From the sequence record MH051917: DNA of 64,000 bases, one strand, 5' to 3'. The notes beneath the pieces are model-generated. The model did not search any database and had not been told where the DNA came from. It was given only the letters and a program-made list of their open reading frames with translations. Each line of letters begins with the position of its first letter. The stretch's first letter is position 1. Below are positions 41,243-63,010 of the stretch, in pieces. The DNA comes from Enterobacteria phage vB_EcoM_IME341. The translations under genes were made by a program, and so were the position numbers.

Positions 41243-41319
41243 GGCCCTGTAGCTCAATGGTTAGCAGCAGTCCCCTCATAAGGGAAAGGTTACCAGTTCA
41301 AATCTGGTCTGGGTCACCA
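41243..41319 (+). tRNA. tRNA with CAT anticodon (Met, or Ile2 if lysidine-modified)
   Basis: cloverleaf folded by hand: T-arm ACCAG-TTCAAAT-CTGGT, anticodon loop CTCATAA, 3' CCA encoded; one acceptor mismatch. Confidence 0.65.
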
Positions 41320-41387: not shown

Positions 41388-42047
41388 ATGCTTTGCCAAT
41401 ATTGTTCTAAAGAATGTAAAAACTTAAATTCACTAAAGCAACATGAAAAACGGTGCAAATCTAACCCAAATGGATTAGATATGAGCGGCCCTAATAACCC
41501 TCGTTTCGGTCTTAAAGGTGTCAATCAATTTACAAAAGCCAAAGAACTAGGTAAAGAAATAAAGGTTTCTGATAAAACCAGAGAAAAACTTAGAAAAGCC
41601 AATACAGGATATGTATGGTCTAATGAACGCAAAGAAGCACATTCTAAAAGAATGCGGCAAGCTGTTCTTGATAATCCTGATTCATATTCTGCTTCTAATG
41701 TTTCTGGTCGAGTAAAAACATATGAGTTTGACGGATTTAAATTTAAAGGGACTTGGGAATTAAAAGTTGCTAAGTTTTTAAAAGAACACAATATCAAATA
41801 TACTAATGAAATAAAGCCAATTCCTTACGAATGGGAAGGTTCAGAACATCTCTATTTTCCTGATTTTTATTTACCCACTTATGATTTTTATATAGAAGTC
41901 AAAGGATATAAAAGAGATAGAGACCTTTGTAAATGGAAAGCTTTAGAAAATTTGATAGTTTTAGAAAAAGATGAGATTTCCGATTTGTCTTGTCTTTTAA
42001 ATAAATTACGTCCCGCTGGTGTAATGGATAGCATACGATCCTTCTAA
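41388..42047 (+). CDS. free-standing homing-endonuclease-like protein: CxxC...HxxxxC zinc finger, NUMOD-like linker, PD-(D/E)xK domain related to gp4
   Basis: ATG 41388 after GGAGA; C-terminal YFPDFYLPTYDFYIEVKG parallels gp4 YFMDF...FEVK; lies in tRNA cluster like T4 segB. Confidence 0.55.
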   Translation: MLCQYCSKECKNLNSLKQHEKRCKSNPNGLDMSGPNNPRFGLKGVNQFTKAKELGKEIKVSDKTREKLRKANTGYVWSNERKEAHSKRMRQAVLDNPDSYSASNVSGRVKTYEFDGFKFKGTWELKVAKFLKEHNIKYTNEIKPIPYEWEGSEHLYFPDFYLPTYDFYIEVKGYKRDRDLCKWKALENLIVLEKDEISDLSCLLNKLRPAGVMDSIRSF

Positions 42048-42084
42048 GTTTGCGGTCCTGGTTCGATCCCAGGGCGGGATACCA
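42010..42084 (+). tRNA. tRNA-Arg (TCT anticodon)
   Basis: acceptor GTCCCGC/GCGGGAT, T-arm CCTGG-TTCGATC-CCAGG, anticodon loop CTTCTAA, CCA encoded; overlaps 3' end of the preceding ORF. Confidence 0.7.
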
Positions 42085-56311: not shown

Positions 56312-56884
56312 ATGGCCCAACTTTATTTTCACTACGCAGCAATGAATTCCGGGAAGACCGCTTCATTGCTAACAGCCGCTCATAACTACAAAGAACGTGG
56401 TATGGGCGTACTTCTTTTAAAGCCTGCGATAGACAATAGAGAATCAAGCCATAGCATTTCGTCTCGTATAGGGATTAGCCAAGAGGCTAATGCAGTGACT
56501 CCAGATATGGACCTATACGAGTTCTATCGTTGGGCTGAATCTCAAAAAGATATCCACTGCGTGTTTGTGGATGAAGCACAGTTCTTAGAACCAATACAGA
56601 TAAAACAACTGGCAAAGATAGTAGACAATTATAATGTTCCAGTTATGTGCTATGGGCTAAGAACTGATTTTCAGGGTAAACTGTTTCCTGGTTCTGCTGA
56701 ATTACTCGCTACAGCAGATAAACTCGTTGAGTACAAAGGTGTGTGCCATTGTGGACGTAAAGCTACTATGACGGCTCGTATCCAAGATGGTATCGCAATT
56801 AAGGACGGTGACCAAGTTTCTATAGGTGGCAACGATTCTTACGTGTCATTGTGCAGGAAGCACTGGATAGAAATAACGAGTTGA
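56312..56884 (+). CDS. tk: thymidine kinase
   Basis: N-terminal P-loop YFHYAAMNSGKT; 190 aa. Confidence 0.9.
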   Translation: MAQLYFHYAAMNSGKTASLLTAAHNYKERGMGVLLLKPAIDNRESSHSISSRIGISQEANAVTPDMDLYEFYRWAESQKDIHCVFVDEAQFLEPIQIKQLAKIVDNYNVPVMCYGLRTDFQGKLFPGSAELLATADKLVEYKGVCHCGRKATMTARIQDGIAIKDGDQVSIGGNDSYVSLCRKHWIEITS

Positions 56885-56891
56885 GGGTACT

Positions 56892-57170
56892 ATGGACCTA
56901 AATTCAAAGATTTTAATTCTAGCGTTCGCTGTGGCTATTTCTTATATTGTTCTTTCGCCTATCATGGATGATGTGGCTTACAAAAGAGAGATAGAGGTTG
57001 TAGCAGCGACGTATAATGCTAATAATAAAGAATGCCCTAATAAAAATGGGATGGATTTAATTAAAGCGCATTATATGCTTTCCATTACCTCGCCTATACA
57101 GAGGAATTGGGTTGAATATAATTTTAACGACGTGTTCTATTCTTATTGTCGTAAGCTTAAAAAGCTATAA
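56892..57170 (+). CDS. N-terminally membrane-anchored small protein (rI-like by position after tk)
   Basis: N-terminal TM, Cys-containing periplasmic part. Confidence 0.45.
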   Translation: MDLNSKILILAFAVAISYIVLSPIMDDVAYKREIEVVAATYNANNKECPNKNGMDLIKAHYMLSITSPIQRNWVEYNFNDVFYSYCRKLKKL

Positions 57171-57262
57171 ATAATAATACTAACCGTAGAGCTTTAGCTT
57201 TTGGTAATCGCTATCGGTTAAGGCCGAAAGGCAAATAGTATAAAACAACAAAGGACATTTGT

Positions 57263-57926: not shown

Positions 57927-57931
57927 TCAAA

Positions 57932-57957
57932 GGTCTCACTTCGGTGGGACCTTTTTT
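57932..57957 (+). terminator. intrinsic terminator
   Basis: GGTCTCAC-TTCG-GTGGGACC + T6. Confidence 0.75.
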
Positions 57958-57966
57958 CGTTTAGGT

Positions 57967-58016
57967 GTTTACATCCTCTAGGAACATGATACTATAGACC
58001 TATCAACTAATGAGGA
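57967..58016 (+). promoter_or_regulatory. early promoter cassette
   Basis: GTTTAC 57967-72; TACTAT 57990-95; spacer TCCTC vs SD GAGGA. Confidence 0.65.
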
Positions 58017-58023
58017 AAACAGT

Positions 58024-58260
58024 ATGAAACTTACAAGTACTACGGTTTCATTAGAATATGAAATCAACGGTCGTATCCTTGAGATTAAGATATTCGACGA
58101 CCGAAGTATCTTTGCCGATTATCGAGGATACAGAATTCGTCTGGAAAAGGACGAGCTCAAGGAACCGTGGCTCCTTAAAGACACATTAAAGGGTTGTGGG
58201 TGTAAACTGAAAACCACCCAAGCCCAAGAATTAATTTCTACTATCAACAAATACTGGTGA
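58024..58260 (+). CDS. hypothetical protein
   Basis: 78-aa ORF. Confidence 0.5.
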   Translation: MKLTSTTVSLEYEINGRILEIKIFDDRSIFADYRGYRIRLEKDELKEPWLLKDTLKGCGCKLKTTQAQELISTINKYW

Positions 58261-58264
58261 TATT

Positions 58265-58447
58265 ATGTTAACTACTGAACAGTGTGCAAAAATTCTTAAA
58301 TTGGCTATTGAAATTGAAAGAGATTCTAACGACCTTGCGGTTGAGATGTGTGAAGGTTATTCATATTCCGGAATAGAACGGTGTAAACGAGATTTGGCTA
58401 AATCAAAACAGGCTTTGGTTGATTATTTAGAAGAATTGAAAGCATAA
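58265..58447 (+). CDS. hypothetical protein
   Basis: 60-aa ORF. Confidence 0.4.
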   Translation: MLTTEQCAKILKLAIEIERDSNDLAVEMCEGYSYSGIERCKRDLAKSKQALVDYLEELKA

Positions 58448-58566
58448 TGGCTGGTGGCATAGGAGCATGATATGATTTACTATCTTGAACCTTGGGCTTG
58501 GCTAACAATGGCTGTAGGGCCTGTTTTAATTGGTTTATTCTTTTCATGGTTAGCGAGGAAACTGTA

Positions 58567-58764
58567 ATGTTATACGATCCGAGTGGTTGTTCTGAAGATG
58601 GTATTATTGTTCTTTTGGCAGATGTTGAAGAATCTGACGATGATATCTTTGTTAAAGATTGGGAAGAAAAAGGTGGAATTACGCTCCAACAAGAAAATGA
58701 TATGATTTGTCTGAACGCAAGCCAAGTCGAAGAGCTTTATAGTATTTTAAAACACAACCGGTGA
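58567..58764 (+). CDS. small acidic protein
   Basis: ATG 58567 after GAGGAAA. Confidence 0.4.
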   Translation: MLYDPSGCSEDGIIVLLADVEESDDDIFVKDWEEKGGITLQQENDMICLNASQVEELYSILKHNR

Positions 58765-58767
58765 TTT

Positions 58768-58950
58768 ATGAAAACCGAAGAAAAGCACTTAAAGCTTGAA
58801 GAGCTTATCGAGATATATTCTGGAGCAGTGGCCAGATTTGAAACTGCGTTTTGCAACGATTACCCAGCTAGTGAATGCAGCAGGCTTTCTAAAGAAGAAG
58901 ATGAAGCTCTTAAAGAGTTGTTAAATTTTATTAAACAAAATGTGAAATGA
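58768..58950 (+). CDS. hypothetical protein
   Basis: 60-aa ORF. Confidence 0.4.
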   Translation: MKTEEKHLKLEELIEIYSGAVARFETAFCNDYPASECSRLSKEEDEALKELLNFIKQNVK

Positions 58951-58960
58951 GGAACGGAAA

Positions 58961-59521
58961 ATGATTATTGAAACATCTGGGTTGTTTGGTGACCTGACCG
59001 CTGAAGTAGTTGATAATGCAATTGTGCTTTCACAAGAAGACGATAAAATCGTACTGACTATCCAAGATATCAAACCACTTTACGATTTAAAGGTTTTGGA
59101 CAAACACCAATATCTTAATGGTAGTTTTAGAGGTGTATTTAATATTAACGATGATATGTGGGCCCAGATTTATAACCATGACAACGGGTTTAATTTGGAA
59201 ACGGATAGGGAATGTCTAAGCATTAGTGATTCTGCTAATTTCTTTAAATGTATTTTTAAACTGTTCCAGGAAGAATGTAAGCCAGAAGTCGAATGGAAAG
59301 TCCCTGGCCAAGATGCGGTGATTCGTTCTAGTGAAACCTTTGAGGGTGACGAAGAAGAACTGGATTATGACACCGAATTGTCCGTGTATCAACACCAGGG
59401 TCGTGATTTGCTATCCTTGACCCAAAGACATGACGGTGAAAATGAAGTGGTATTTACTAAGGACGAGCTCAAGGCTTTAGTCTCTTATCTGAACTCTGTT
59501 ATCCCAACTATGAACTCTTAA
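58961..59521 (+). CDS. hypothetical acidic protein
   Basis: 186-aa ORF after GAGGAA. Confidence 0.5.
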   Translation: MIIETSGLFGDLTAEVVDNAIVLSQEDDKIVLTIQDIKPLYDLKVLDKHQYLNGSFRGVFNINDDMWAQIYNHDNGFNLETDRECLSISDSANFFKCIFKLFQEECKPEVEWKVPGQDAVIRSSETFEGDEEELDYDTELSVYQHQGRDLLSLTQRHDGENEVVFTKDELKALVSYLNSVIPTMNS

Positions 59522-59530
59522 GGAAATATT

Positions 59531-59983
59531 ATGATTATCAATACAAACTCTTGGCACGTTAAATTACACGACCGTTTTTATGACCGTCATTCTCGACCGC
59601 ACTCTTTATGTGCTTACTTCTGGAAAATGGTTTGGGCCTGTTTTGCTTGTGCTGTTGTTGCAGGTAGTACGCTTTTTGGATTAACTGTTGCAGGCGCTGG
59701 TGTATTAGAGCATTTCTTTGTATTAAGTACCCCTGTTCTGTTGAGTCTAGGGTTTGTTTTAGGGTTGATTACGATAGCTCTTATTATTGCGCTATCCATT
59801 GGTTTGGCATTCGGTGCGATGAATTTACACGCATGGTATGATGCCCGTAGAGAAGAAAAGGAATGGCAACGTATTCAAGCTGAGCGTGAAGGCCGAGAAA
59901 CTAAAGAAAACGTTGTCATCCAATATATTAAAGCTCGTAAATCTAAGGTCTGCCCTGTAATCCACTTCGAGAACAAAGAATGA
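59531..59983 (+). CDS. multi-pass membrane protein
   Basis: 2-3 TM segments; TAAGGA RBS; overlaps start of next gene. Confidence 0.5.
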   Translation: MIINTNSWHVKLHDRFYDRHSRPHSLCAYFWKMVWACFACAVVAGSTLFGLTVAGAGVLEHFFVLSTPVLLSLGFVLGLITIALIIALSIGLAFGAMNLHAWYDARREEKEWQRIQAEREGRETKENVVIQYIKARKSKVCPVIHFENKE

Positions 59984-60990
59984 GAACAGTTATGAAAGGC
60001 TACTTCGGTAGCCACCTTTATGGAACAAGTACTCCGGAATCTGATGTCGATTTTAAAGAAATCTTTGTTCCACATCCGCGTGATATTCTGTTAGGTACGG
60101 CTATGAACCATACCAACCTGAATACGAATAACACCGCTTCCAAAAACACTAAAGATGATGTTGACCACGAGCTTTATAGCCTGAAATATTTCTTTAAACT
60201 AGCGGCTGAAGGCGAAACCGTTGCTCTGGACATGATTCATACTCCACCTGAACTGGTGGTTAAATCTGATTTACCTGATGTATGGAAATTTATCCAGGAT
60301 AACCGTTCACGGTTCTATACAACCAACATGAAAGCCTATTTAGGGTACGTCCGTAAGCAAGCTTCTAAATATGGTGTTAAAGGTTCTCGTCTGGCTGCTC
60401 TGCGTGGTGTACTGGCTATTGTTAACCAGATTCCTGAACAGTGGGTCGATTATCAAGAAGATGGTTCGACTAAGCAACGTCGCTCTAAGGTGGAAGATAT
60501 CAAACATCGGCTCCCTGAAAACGAATTCTGTGAATGGGTATTCCATAACCATGAGAAAACAGGTCCTCAAACGTTTTATACTGTTCTCGGACGTAAATAC
60601 CAAACCACTCTGTCATTAATCGAGCTCAAGCAATCTCTGAATAAGCTCGATGCGGAATATGGTGAACGTGCTCGTAAGGCTGAAGCCAATGAAGGTATTG
60701 ACTGGAAAGCTCTGAGCCATGCTTATCGTGCTGGTTATCAGTTGAAGGAAATCTATCAAACAGGTGACCTGGTTTATCCGCTTAAAAATGCTTCTATTAT
60801 TAAAGCAATAAAAGCAGGTGATATGCCTTTTAAAGTGGTCCAAGGGCTGTTGGAAAATATTGTTGATGAAGTCGAAGTCCTGGCTATCCAGGCTCATAAG
60901 AACGGTATGCCTGAGAAGGTAGATATGAAGTTCTGGGACAAGTTCGTTGAAGAGGTGTACCTTGACAACCACAACGCTTATTACCGCTAA
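59980..60990 (+). CDS. Pol-beta-superfamily nucleotidyltransferase-like protein
   Basis: N-terminal YFGSHLYGTSTPESDVDF (GS...DxD) and downstream LDMIH acidic residue. Confidence 0.55.
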   Translation: MRTVMKGYFGSHLYGTSTPESDVDFKEIFVPHPRDILLGTAMNHTNLNTNNTASKNTKDDVDHELYSLKYFFKLAAEGETVALDMIHTPPELVVKSDLPDVWKFIQDNRSRFYTTNMKAYLGYVRKQASKYGVKGSRLAALRGVLAIVNQIPEQWVDYQEDGSTKQRRSKVEDIKHRLPENEFCEWVFHNHEKTGPQTFYTVLGRKYQTTLSLIELKQSLNKLDAEYGERARKAEANEGIDWKALSHAYRAGYQLKEIYQTGDLVYPLKNASIIKAIKAGDMPFKVVQGLLENIVDEVEVLAIQAHKNGMPEKVDMKFWDKFVEEVYLDNHNAYYR

Positions 60991-61186
60991 AGAAGAAATT
61001 AACGTCTTTCTATCGTATGGAAGACCTCATAAAACTCGACGTTGGTATCTTGAAGCCGTCTGTAAAGAAACCGGACGTCGAGTCAATATCAAGTACGCAT
61101 GCAAACCTACGCCTAAACAGACAAGACGATTTGTTAACTGGGCTATAAATGATATCCGCTTCTATAATTTTTGGAGCGCAATTTAG
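60947..61186 (+). CDS. possible small basic protein; start uncertain
   Basis: ORF overlaps the 3' end of the preceding gene by 44 nt, no internal ATG. Confidence 0.25.
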   Translation: MKRCTLTTTTLITAKEEINVFLSYGRPHKTRRWYLEAVCKETGRRVNIKYACKPTPKQTRRFVNWAINDIRFYNFWSAI

Positions 61187-61207
61187 GAACCTTCGGGTTC
61201 CTTTTTT
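61186..61207 (+). terminator. intrinsic terminator
   Basis: GGAACC-TTCG-GGTTCC + T6. Confidence 0.75.
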
Positions 61208-61226: not shown

Positions 61227-61266
61227 GTTTACAACCTCGTAGAGCATGATACTATAGACCTATCAA
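61227..61266 (+). promoter_or_regulatory. early promoter cassette
   Basis: GTTTAC 61227-32; TACTAT 61250-55; TAGACCTATCAA. Confidence 0.65.
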
Positions 61267-61560: not shown

Positions 61561-61600
61561 GTGTACATATGCTTTAAACGTGTTATTATAGACCTATCAA
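61561..61600 (+). promoter_or_regulatory. early promoter variant (GTGTACA -35, TATTAT -10, TAGACCTATCAA)
   Basis: cassette variant upstream of the ATPase gene. Confidence 0.5.
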
Positions 61601-61626
61601 ATCTACTGAGTGAAATGGAGAATATA

Positions 61627-62607
61627 ATGTTAACTATCAAAATCAACAAAGGTATCTATCGCGGTAATGAAATCTCTGGTACGTTCATGAGTTCAGGTAA
61701 AACCTGGTTCCCTAATAAAATTCATGAATCCGAAGCTCACCTCGGTGATGGCAAGGTATTCGTACAGATTGATGGTGTTGAACGTGGTGTATGGGTGTTC
61801 AAATGTGACGTTGAAATGGAAGGTGCTGAAGCTCCTGTAGTGGTTACTGAATCCGCTGAAGAAATGAAACATCGCATCAACAAACGTTTTAAAGTAATGA
61901 ACATGATGACTAACGGAATCATCGATGGTAAAATTCGTTCCCTTATCATCTCTGGTGCCGCAGGTATTGGTAAAACGTATTCTTTGGATAAAGCATTACA
62001 GAATGCCCATGAAAATGAAACTATCGAATATAAATCAATCAACGGAAAGATTAGTGGAATCGGTCTTTACGAGCAGCTTTGGAATAACCGCGGCCCTAAT
62101 AGTGTTCTTCTTATCGATGATGTTGATGTATTCTCTGATATGGATATCCTGAACCTGTTAAAAGCAGCATTGGATACCGGTGAAAAACGTAAGGTGTGCT
62201 GGAGCACTTCAAGTTCTTACCTCGATGATAAAAATATCGATAAAGAATTCGAATACGAAGGCACCATCGTGTTCATCACCAACGTTGATATTGACCGTGA
62301 ATTAGAACGTGGAACTAAACTTGCTCCACACCTCCAGGCTTTAGTATCTCGTTCAGTTTACTTAGACCTCGGAGTTCACTCTAACGAAGAGATTATGGTT
62401 CGTGTTGAAGACGTTATCCTGTCCACTGATATGATGCAAAACCGAGGTCTGTCTGATGCTGAGACCTATCAAGCTTTAGCATGGATGAAGGCTAATGTAT
62501 CTCGTCTTCGTAACGTATCATTACGTACAGCTCTTTATCTAGCGGACTTCATTGCCACCGATAAAAATGACTGGAACGAAATCGCTGAAGTTACCCTTCT
62601 GAAATAA
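61627..62607 (+). CDS. P-loop ATPase (Walker A GAAGIGKT, Walker B LLIDDVD) with distinct N-terminal domain
   Basis: ATG 61627 after GGAGAATATA; motifs read from translation. Confidence 0.6.
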   Translation: MLTIKINKGIYRGNEISGTFMSSGKTWFPNKIHESEAHLGDGKVFVQIDGVERGVWVFKCDVEMEGAEAPVVVTESAEEMKHRINKRFKVMNMMTNGIIDGKIRSLIISGAAGIGKTYSLDKALQNAHENETIEYKSINGKISGIGLYEQLWNNRGPNSVLLIDDVDVFSDMDILNLLKAALDTGEKRKVCWSTSSSYLDDKNIDKEFEYEGTIVFITNVDIDRELERGTKLAPHLQALVSRSVYLDLGVHSNEEIMVRVEDVILSTDMMQNRGLSDAETYQALAWMKANVSRLRNVSLRTALYLADFIATDKNDWNEIAEVTLLK

Positions 62608-62961: not shown

Positions 62962-63010
62962 GTTTACATCTCCAGTAGAAATGATACTATAGACCTATCA
63001 ACTACTGGAG
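62962..63010 (+). promoter_or_regulatory. early promoter cassette; spacer CTCCAGTAG pairs with SD-containing CTACTGGAG
   Basis: GTTTAC 62962-67; TACTAT 62985-90; arms 62970-78 and 63002-10. Confidence 0.7.

Follow-up and report, generated by a model that had tools for sequence, protein, structure and literature searches.

The subject of this analysis is two overlapping open reading frames (ORFs) in the DNA of Enterobacteria phage vB_EcoM_IME341 (sequence record MH051917), of which a stretch of 64,000 nucleotides, termed the window, was analysed. The downstream ORF encodes a protein of 336 amino acids (aa), which is assigned from its sequence as the Dhakavirus ortholog of T4 NrdC.11, and the upstream ORF encodes a membrane protein of 150 aa. 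The 336-aa protein is probably a nucleotidyltransferase (NTase) of the NrdC.11 clade of the RlaP family that refills nucleotides in RNA repair, with the membrane-protein ORF as a separate neighbour. The NTase is an already known and annotated member of the T4 nrdC.11/RlaP family, and the finding is ordinary. It matters little, because the gene is conserved and annotated, the role of RlaP has been published, first as a prediction and now with biochemical data, and the partnership with the membrane protein dissolves when genomes are compared. The two ORFs are as follows.

59531-59983, + strand: membrane-protein ORF, 150 aa, phrog_944
59980-60990, + strand: NTase ORF, 336 aa, nrdC.11 ortholog, divergent 'long' member of RlaP/PF10127

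The two ORFs and the overlap at the stop of the 150-aa protein, on which the sequence-only reading was built, are confirmed at these positions, and the overlap is 4 nt long. The membrane ORF ends with AAA GAA TGA, and the ATG of the NTase ORF overlaps this stop codon in an ATGA junction (GAATGAGA). A second in-frame ATG at 59992 is an alternative start of the NTase, and some orthologs are annotated in databases as 332-aa proteins.

Identity, fold and active site of the NTase

The NTase is matched by the Pfam profile of RlaP (PF10127) with 42.9 bits against a cut-off of 23 bits (E 6.1e-11), at residues 8-134 only, and by phrog_388 'nucleotidyltransferase' with an E-value of 7.5e-130. With such scores, the NTase motif is far from a chance occurrence. 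PF10127 is assigned to all 120 homologs among the matches listed. The NTase is 98.5% identical to its best phage ortholog and ~82% identical to Tequatrovirus orthologs such as that of T2. A hidden Markov model (HMM) of the clade gives a score of 404 bits to NrdC.11 when it is run against the T4 genome. With an HMM of canonical RlaP, the NTase is the sole match in the window (E 3.7e-5) and NrdC.11 is the sole match in T4. Alignment to 20 canonical RlaPs by hhalign covers 86 core columns with an E-value of 1e-4 and a probability of 57%. PADLOC and NCBIfam searches give no match for the NTase, and searches of PDB sequences with the single protein, a 25-sequence profile and a 72-sequence profile retrieve no NTase. 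The proposal that the protein belongs to the Pol-beta superfamily of NTases is upheld by PF10127, phrog_388 and the AlphaFold model described below.

T4 NrdC.11 is, like the window NTase, 336 aa long, and both genes occupy the same slot in the gene order (rI ... mobD.1 ... nrdC.11 - nrdC.10). The two loci differ in that T4 has the gene for the MobD homing endonuclease upstream of nrdC.11 and no membrane-family gene, whereas the window has the membrane gene there. A further difference is that two small ORFs, of which one is DUF7279, separate nrdC.11 from nrdC.10 in the window. The nrdC.11 orthologs were matched to the NTase domain of COG3541 in 2006 (PMC1524935). Many orthologs in GenBank and UniRef (P0001, P0011, P0033, P0065 and others) are labelled 'thioredoxin', and one is labelled 'HNH homing endonuclease'. 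These labels appear to have been carried over from the name of the gene, nrdC, or from mobD beside it.

The AlphaFold (AF2) model of the NTase has a mean predicted local distance difference test (pLDDT) score of 87.4 and a predicted template modelling (pTM) score of 0.71, and consists of a Pol-beta NTase core and a helical domain. The alignment for this model includes 47 extra homologs, which were obtained by a search with a 28%-identical protein of Rhodobacter phage RcXuper. An initial model from a shallow alignment (25 sequences of at least 66% identity) has a pLDDT of 25-50 in the catalytic core and was discarded. In the final model, a beta/alpha core (strands 2-9, 23-30, 44-48 and 61-67) is followed by a helical linker, a beta-rich insertion (strands 155-160, 163-168, 184-191, 195-202 and 205-208) and a C-terminal bundle (213-335). 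A search of a viral structure library gives 30 matches at E <= 1e-3, and those with names are nearly all NTases of phages or giant viruses. The NTase has the architecture of RlaP, namely G[SG]...D.D, a third carboxylate and a C-terminal helical domain with a cleft. The features of the protein are listed below with their positions in the window.

60007..60051, + strand: signature G10-S11-x9-S21-D22-V23-D24, with the first two carboxylates for metal binding; from the end of beta-1 through a helix to the start of beta-2
60154..60171, + strand: D59-D60-V-D62-H-E64 ('DDVDHE'), in or next to predicted beta-strand 61-67
60229..60231, + strand: D84 of LDMIH, fourth conserved acidic position; predicted helix 80-86
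60442..60603, + strand: beta-rich insertion (residues ~155-208) that separates the helical linker from the C-terminal bundle, outside the Pfam RlaP match
60616..60984, + strand: C-terminal helical bundle, residues ~213-335, with invariant R230, K243, H247 and R250

The G-S-x(9)-S-D-V-D signature that had been noticed in the sequence is present at the first of these positions, and LDMIH is located at residues 83-87. G10, S11, S21, D22 and D24 are invariant in 72 phage and metagenomic homologs, which form two clades, and nearly so in 59 bacterial homologs. Across these 131 sequences, D22, D24 and D62 are nearly always Asp, and R230, K243, H247 and R250 are invariant. The position of D62 is occupied by Asp in 122 sequences and by Glu in three, the other six having gaps or other residues. 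The position of D84 is occupied by Asp in 71 and by Glu in 56 of the aligned sequences, the remainder being gaps. The hhalign alignment places GS...SDVD on GSRAWG...SDYD of canonical RlaP and pairs D62 and D84 with D82 and E104, respectively, both of which are invariant. Judged by secondary structure, conservation and the profile alignment, D62 is a likelier third catalytic carboxylate than D84, because D62 is located in a beta-strand, is Asp in 122 of the 131 sequences and is aligned to an invariant Asp, whereas D84 is located in a helix. Thus, the downstream acidic residue of LDMIH that had been pointed out is indeed conserved as Asp or Glu, but D62 is preferred to it as the third catalytic residue. 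The C-terminal bundle probably forms the side of the cleft that binds NTP and RNA.

Several other NTase systems were considered as assignments and rejected. None of the CD-NTase, minimal NTase and CCA-adding families that had been offered as options is significant in Pfam. A CD-NTase of the CBASS type is rejected, with no Pfam match of the SMODS or Mab-21 type at E <= 0.1, no PADLOC match, and a CD-NTase ranked only 33 by Foldseek with a probability of 0.12; the membrane protein, which would be the effector, has no sensor domain recognisable by Pfam. For a CCA-adding enzyme or poly(A) polymerase, no PolyA_pol head match is found in the NTase (Pfam, E <= 0.1). The MNT component of MNT-HEPN (PF01909) scores 13.9 bits against a cut-off of 21 bits (E 0.071), and no separate HEPN gene is adjacent; the HEPN-like helical matches lie inside the C-terminal domain of the NTase itself. 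An antibiotic NTase is rejected in favour of PF10127, in which the sequence places the protein. Hailong, an anti-phage system of HalA and HalB (Tan et al. 2025, summarised in the review PMC13434031), is rejected as well: homology to HalB or HalA is not detectable in the sequence, the identity to HalB in the model is 13%, and the window pair is not a stable pair of the kind expected for a Hailong operon. HalB is ~217 aa long, as compared with 336 aa for the window NTase, and Hailong is a bacterial defence system, whereas the window NTase is encoded by an early gene of a lytic phage.

Genomic neighbourhoods of the relatives and the putative role in RNA repair

A scan of one genome per prokaryotic species gives 72 loci, from bacteria and MAGs (L058-L129), with NTase relatives of 26-52% identity, and a full-length ORF is recovered in 59 of them. 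Unsupervised clustering of the neighbours gives one dominant family, which is found in 21 loci, always immediately downstream of the relative and on the same strand. This neighbour is a canonical full-length RlaP (PF10127, 234.6 bits). Matches to canonical RlaP are found in 25 bacterial loci altogether, in ~23 of them directly downstream of the long NTase. The other recurrent neighbours are RtcB (six loci, 442.8 bits), Hen1 (three loci, 379 bits), Ro60/TROVE (three loci) and HD_4 (four loci). The gene orders Ro60-...-RtcB-x-NTlong-RlaP-Hen1 (L064:6001-7743), Ro60-...-RtcB-NTlong-RlaP (L117:6001-7781) and Hen1-857 aa-NTlong-RlaP (L093:6001-7799), in which NTlong is the long NTase, are textbook RNA-repair operons. 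Such pairs of long NTase and canonical RlaP are often part of RtcB, Hen1 or Ro60 operons. The tandem arrangement in bacteria suggests a division of labour, with distinct or cooperative roles for the two paralogs. T4-like phages have the long form only and no canonical RlaP. In RcXuper, the 28%-identical NTase is located inside an array of tRNA genes, with 24 tRNA features in 12.9 kb (L049:1-12930) on both flanks, a placement that fits a tRNA-directed function.

The name RlaP, for RNA-ligase association, was given to PF10127 by Burroughs & Aravind (2016), who predicted that the protein restores nucleotides before ligation, according to two later papers that cite them (PMC12776372, PMC7824862). 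Iyer et al. (2021) reported that RlaP and RNA ligases have matching distributions in jumbo phages and that RlaP probably replaces, before ligation, the nucleotides that RloC has taken out (PMC7824862). Carruthers, Fatma & Huang (bioRxiv, December 2025) reported that the Pseudomonas enzymes PfRlaP and PaRlaP add one or two nucleoside monophosphates (NMPs) to the 3'-OH of RNA (PMC12776372). According to the same paper, these enzymes are inactive on DNA and protein, prefer Mn2+, favour a mimic of cleaved tRNA, and partly rescue the aminoacylation of a tRNA missing one anticodon-loop nucleotide. RlaP has little specificity for nucleoside triphosphates (NTPs), halts after one or two additions, and labels full-length tRNAs and any RNA 3'-OH in vitro. 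In its discussion, the paper states that RnlA requires a 3'-OH end, which the RlaP product keeps. It places 'T4NrdC.11' in cluster 5 of the PF10127 sequence similarity network and terms this protein an RlaP of unknown function.

The window NTase resembles PfRlaP and PaRlaP in several respects. They belong to a common Pfam family with an N-terminal GS...D.D core and a conserved Asp on the next strand, they consist of two domains, the NTase core and a C-terminal helical domain, and the bacterial relatives of the window NTase are also found in RtcB operons. They differ in that the window NTase belongs to the clade of cluster 5, whereas PfRlaP and PaRlaP belong to cluster 1a, and in that the window NTase has 336 aa, with the beta-rich insertion at ~155-208 as an extra element, whereas the Pfam RlaP profile has 249 positions. 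In bacteria, moreover, the NrdC.11-type long form is usually additional to canonical RlaP and does not replace it.

By homology, D22, D24 and D62 would form a two-metal active site, with D84 nearby. The NTase would add one or two NMPs, taken from NTPs, to the 3'-OH of a broken RNA without a template, and the RNA and NTP would be gripped in the cleft against the C-terminal helical domain, in which R230, K243, H247 and R250 are located. During infection, it may refill the nucleotides that are excised from cleaved tRNAs by host anticodon nucleases of the RloC type. It would act once PseT (polynucleotide kinase/phosphatase) has generated the 3'-OH, ahead of sealing by RNA ligase 1 (RnlA), PseT and RnlA being encoded elsewhere in the phage lineage. 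The related Escherichia phage IME08 encodes pseT and rnlA, and T4 encodes pseT, rnlA and rnlB. The T4 tRNA-repair pathway, in which PseT and RnlA counter the anticodon nuclease PrrC, is the proposed partner of the NTase; this classical pathway requires no nucleotide addition, and its genes are not clustered with nrdC.11. If NrdC.11 refills nucleotides removed by RloC, the classic paradigm of tRNA repair by T4 Pnk and Rnl1 gains a third enzyme. The repair of tRNA or RNA, which had been mentioned as an alternative for tRNA, is the best-supported function.

Five points weigh against this assignment. The biochemistry of RlaP comes from cluster 1a enzymes, which share only the N-terminal core with the window NTase, so that the activity assigned to the NrdC.11 clade is drawn by analogy. 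The bacterial long form is usually accompanied by canonical RlaP, and its activity may not be simple NMP addition. In T4-like phages, the pnk and RNA ligase genes are located ~90 kb from nrdC.11 and are not adjacent to it; the association with RNA-repair genes is seen for the bacterial relatives, not locally in the window or in T4-like phages. The nrdC.11-mobD.3 segment is dispensable for viability in the laboratory in a genome-reduced T4 (PMC9825161). Finally, a gene of the membrane-protein family is close to the NTase gene in 45 of 48 T4-like loci and is adjacent to a ligase gene in Pakpunavirus PaP1, which leaves a slight chance of a loose functional link between the two proteins.

It is unlikely that the NTase instead completes or repairs the 3' ends of tRNAs, in the manner of CCA-adding or CCA-repair enzymes, and does not act at breaks in the anticodon loop. 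The RcXuper homolog embedded in a tRNA array, the activity of RlaP on full-length tRNAs and on any RNA 3'-OH in vitro, the tRNA genes of the window phage, and the label 'tRNA nucleotidyltransferase' given by one database source to the homolog P0131 are all consistent with such a function. However, families of CCA-adding enzymes and poly(A) polymerases do not match the NTase in Pfam at E <= 0.1, RlaP has little NTP specificity and stops after one or two additions, and tRNA genes are located within 6 kb of the NTase gene in only two of 46 T4-like loci. The bacterial neighbours RtcB, Hen1 and Ro60, moreover, belong to the repair of RNA breaks and not to tRNA maturation, and a refilling of broken RNA by the NTase is preferred.

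The membrane-protein gene and the remaining alternatives

The 150-aa protein matches phrog_944 (E 4.8e-57). It had been described as a multi-transmembrane protein, in agreement with a single hydrophobic block at ~27-100 (Kyte-Doolittle > 1.6) that has room for two or three transmembrane helices; the N-terminus is basic, and the C-terminal tail is highly charged. An exhaustive search gives 676 clusters of stand-alone proteins at 50% identity, whose matches are generally full-length; most of the 150 listed are 130-180 aa long. In the conserved frame of the family, the N-terminal NSWHYK...PxSLCxYFW is followed by a hydrophobic core and a charged linker, both variable, and by a C-terminal YIKAKKxKxCPxIEF, which is YIKARKSKVCPVIHF in the window protein. 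Residues C27, C141 and P142 do not vary among the 61 diverse members compared. The family is assigned to no Pfam, PADLOC or NCBIfam family, with only two sub-threshold NCBIfam matches. Families such as Oleosin and SieB were rejected as assignments, their Pfam matches among the 61 members being scattered, sub-threshold and derived from transmembrane composition. The family is thus large, sharply conserved and entirely uncharacterised.

Searches by tblastn with two divergent members show that the family also occurs in Pakpunavirus, in Vibrio phages of the Vp_R1 type, in jumbo phages of 355-378 kb and in Pseudomonas phages of the Milchi type. The gene is tandemly duplicated in Milchi, in Vp_R1 and in locus L043. 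Four members from other phages are located as follows.

L052:8001-8408: PaP1 gp023
L053:8001-8435: family member
L054:8001-8844: family member
L055:7998-8874: family member

In PaP1, the gene order is Metallophos_2 phosphoesterase gp026, gp025, helix-turn-helix (HTH) protein gp024, membrane protein gp023, ligase gp022 and kinase gp021 (L052:6923-9764), where gp022 is an Rnl1-type RNA ligase (PF09511, 38.5 bits) and gp021 is a P-loop kinase of the CLP1/AAA_33 type. The membrane gene of PaP1 thus belongs to a cassette that resembles an RNA-repair cassette. Genes for phosphoribosyl pyrophosphate (PRPP) synthetase and NAMPT follow gp021, and genes for NAMPT and PRPP synthetase are also found 1-4 kb downstream of the membrane genes of Vp_R1.

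The T4-like comparison set consists of 48 NTase loci. In 45 of them, a gene of the membrane family is located within 6 kb upstream of the NTase gene, but it is the immediate upstream neighbour in only 13. The genes recur in the order mobD.1 (y05I), the membrane gene, zero to five ORFs and the NTase gene. L004, which is closely related to the window phage, has a gene with 79% identity to T4 MobD between the membrane gene and the NTase gene (L004:5237-6001), and in T4 MobD occupies the slot of the membrane gene (56429-57208 of the record). The point at which the membrane gene and nrdC.11 meet is a site where MobD, an HNH homing endonuclease, inserts. The other intervening ORFs belong, by local BLAST, to two families of unknown function, and a Pfam search of the intervening ORFs in the other T4-like loci gives no match.

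The two genes also occur without each other. No membrane-family gene is found in T4, whose 168.9 kb were searched in full and in six frames with two HMMs of the family and with motif scans. PaP1 has the membrane gene gp023 and, in the 97% of its genome that was covered, no RlaP-type NTase. CBB, Vp_R1 and Milchi have no NTase within 8 kb of the membrane gene, RcXuper and K491 have no membrane-family gene near the NTase gene, and none of the 72 bacterial NTase loci contains one. The 4-nt overlap at the start of the NTase gene is kept when the upstream gene is an unrelated one (L013, L014, L017, L023 and L026). Among the 84 same-strand neighbour pairs of the window, six have a 4-nt overlap and 24 have other overlaps. 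When Dhakavirus is compared with Tequatrovirus, the NTase is ~82% identical, whereas the membrane protein is 31-35% identical, indicating that the two proteins do not co-evolve. Neither protein matches the PADLOC models at E <= 0.1. Because the genes occur independently, are directly adjacent in only 13 of the 48 loci, keep the overlap with unrelated genes and have no PADLOC match, their adjacency is read as synteny inherited in a hyperplastic early region and not as a functional pair. The 150-aa ORF would encode a separate small membrane protein of the same early unit in the hyperplastic rI-nrdC.10 region, and the 4-nt overlap would stem from the tight packing of genes that is usual in T4-like genomes rather than from a dedicated two-component system.

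It is quite unlikely that phage RNA-repair modules have the membrane protein as a facultative, loosely linked accessory, with a part, for instance, in localising or regulating repair or in sensing a ribotoxin at the membrane. Such a role is suggested by the occurrence of the family beside RNA-repair genes in two phage lineages that are not related: in the 13 T4-like loci it immediately precedes the RlaP NTase gene, and in PaP1 it is located between a phosphoesterase/HTH pair and the Rnl1-type ligase, which is followed by the kinase. This second adjacency, in PaP1, is the sole indication of a link. The frame that is strongly conserved across 676 clusters, with its invariant C27, C141 and P142, is also consistent with it. 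However, the immediate neighbours of the membrane genes in CBB, Vp_R1 and Milchi were scanned and contain no recognisable RNA-repair domains, T4 performs RNA repair without the membrane gene, and the gene is found in none of the 72 bacterial RNA-repair loci. Chance adjacency is likely in dense early accessory clusters, and two independent cases have no statistical weight. The wider proposal that phrog_944 serves as an accessory and that the long RlaP, together with PseT and RnlA, forms a third tRNA-repair arm against nucleotide-excising nucleases is similarly improbable.

A signalling/effector pair of the membrane protein and the NTase, as the sequence-only reading had suggested, is unsupported by the genome comparison, in which the genes occur independently and are adjacent in few loci. 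That they form a Hailong-like pair, in which an oligonucleotide made by the NTase would gate a membrane channel, or a CBASS-like pair, or a phage counter-measure mimicking one, is very unlikely. In favour of such a pair, the genes are co-oriented with an overlap of 4 nt, and a membrane gene is present within 6 kb upstream in most T4-like loci. Against it, T4 has the NTase without the membrane gene and PaP1 has the membrane gene without the NTase, MobD or one to five other ORFs intervene where the two are not directly adjacent, and no membrane gene is located near the NTase in RcXuper, K491 or the bacterial loci. The lack of PADLOC matches and of co-evolution, the 13% identity to HalB, which the PDB profile searches do not retrieve, and the presence of the genes in a lytic phage and not in a bacterial defence island also argue against it. 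The two genes are therefore better regarded as separate neighbours.

It is extremely unlikely that the substrate of the NTase is a small molecule or a protein, as for aminoglycoside and lincosamide NTases or AMPylating enzymes, and not RNA, because, although its structural neighbours include kanamycin NTase, LinB, ANT enzymes, GlnE and DrrA, its sequence belongs to PF10127, whose tested members label RNA and not proteins or DNA, and its genomic associations are with RNA ligases.

The early region around the two genes

The region of 2.4 kb around the NTase gene has 88-94% DNA identity to Dhakavirus phages, in whose records the gene is named nrdC.11, and matches 522 T4-like phage records in total. 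From these matches, the window is assigned to a T4-like phage of the Dhakavirus type. In IME08, the gene order is tk, rI, rI.-1, mobD.3, mobD.1, 'membrane protein' (orf88), nrdC.11 'nucleotidyltransferase' and nrdC.10, and orf88 is annotated as similar to RB69 ORF104c. The NTase and membrane ORFs are accordingly placed, by gene order, in the early-gene region from rI to nrdC.10 of a T4-like myovirus. The remaining window maps roughly to terminase/tail-sheath, baseplate, 57B/57A, tRNAs, e, denV, regB, vs and tk.

Consensus scans predict that both genes are located within an early unit of eight ORFs (58024..61186) and do not form a two-gene operon. The predicted ends of this unit are as follows.

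57968-57995, + strand: early-promoter-like site TTTACA-N16-TACTAT, TG-extended, consensus scan only; located after a terminator-like hairpin at 57929-57954
61185-61202, + strand: terminator-like hairpin and T-run, consensus scan only; would end the eight-ORF unit

The identical promoter-like motif is found at 57968-57995, 61228-61255 and 62963-62990 on the + strand, the first two directly after terminator-like hairpins. These promoter-like sites and hairpins suggest a regular series of short early transcription units.

A small ORF of DUF7279/phrog_8921 is located at 60947-61186, and its listed start, a TTG, falls 44 nt before the NTase gene ends. The true start of this ORF is probably further downstream than the listed TTG, because the family match begins at residue 7 and the orthologs are 59-64 aa long. 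The DUF7279 gene is located 3' of nrdC.11 in ~10 related loci and is not found in T4.

The nrdC.10 gene (61561-62607), which is located downstream of the NTase gene, encodes a P-loop ATPase of the AAA/STAND-like type that may have an HTH at its C-terminus. All of its matches in Pfam (AAA_14, AAA_22, nSTAND and HTH_37) fall under the gathering cut-offs, and PADLOC gives only faint P-loop matches to GajB and PtuA. The gene is kept beside nrdC.11 in most T4-like loci.

In the window, ARAGORN detects just two tRNA genes (Met-CAT and Arg-TCT). They are located at 41243-41319 and 42010-42084, ~690 nt apart. IME08 has three contiguous tRNA genes (Arg, Asn and Met), and the tRNA cluster of the window differs from that of IME08 by insertion or loss.

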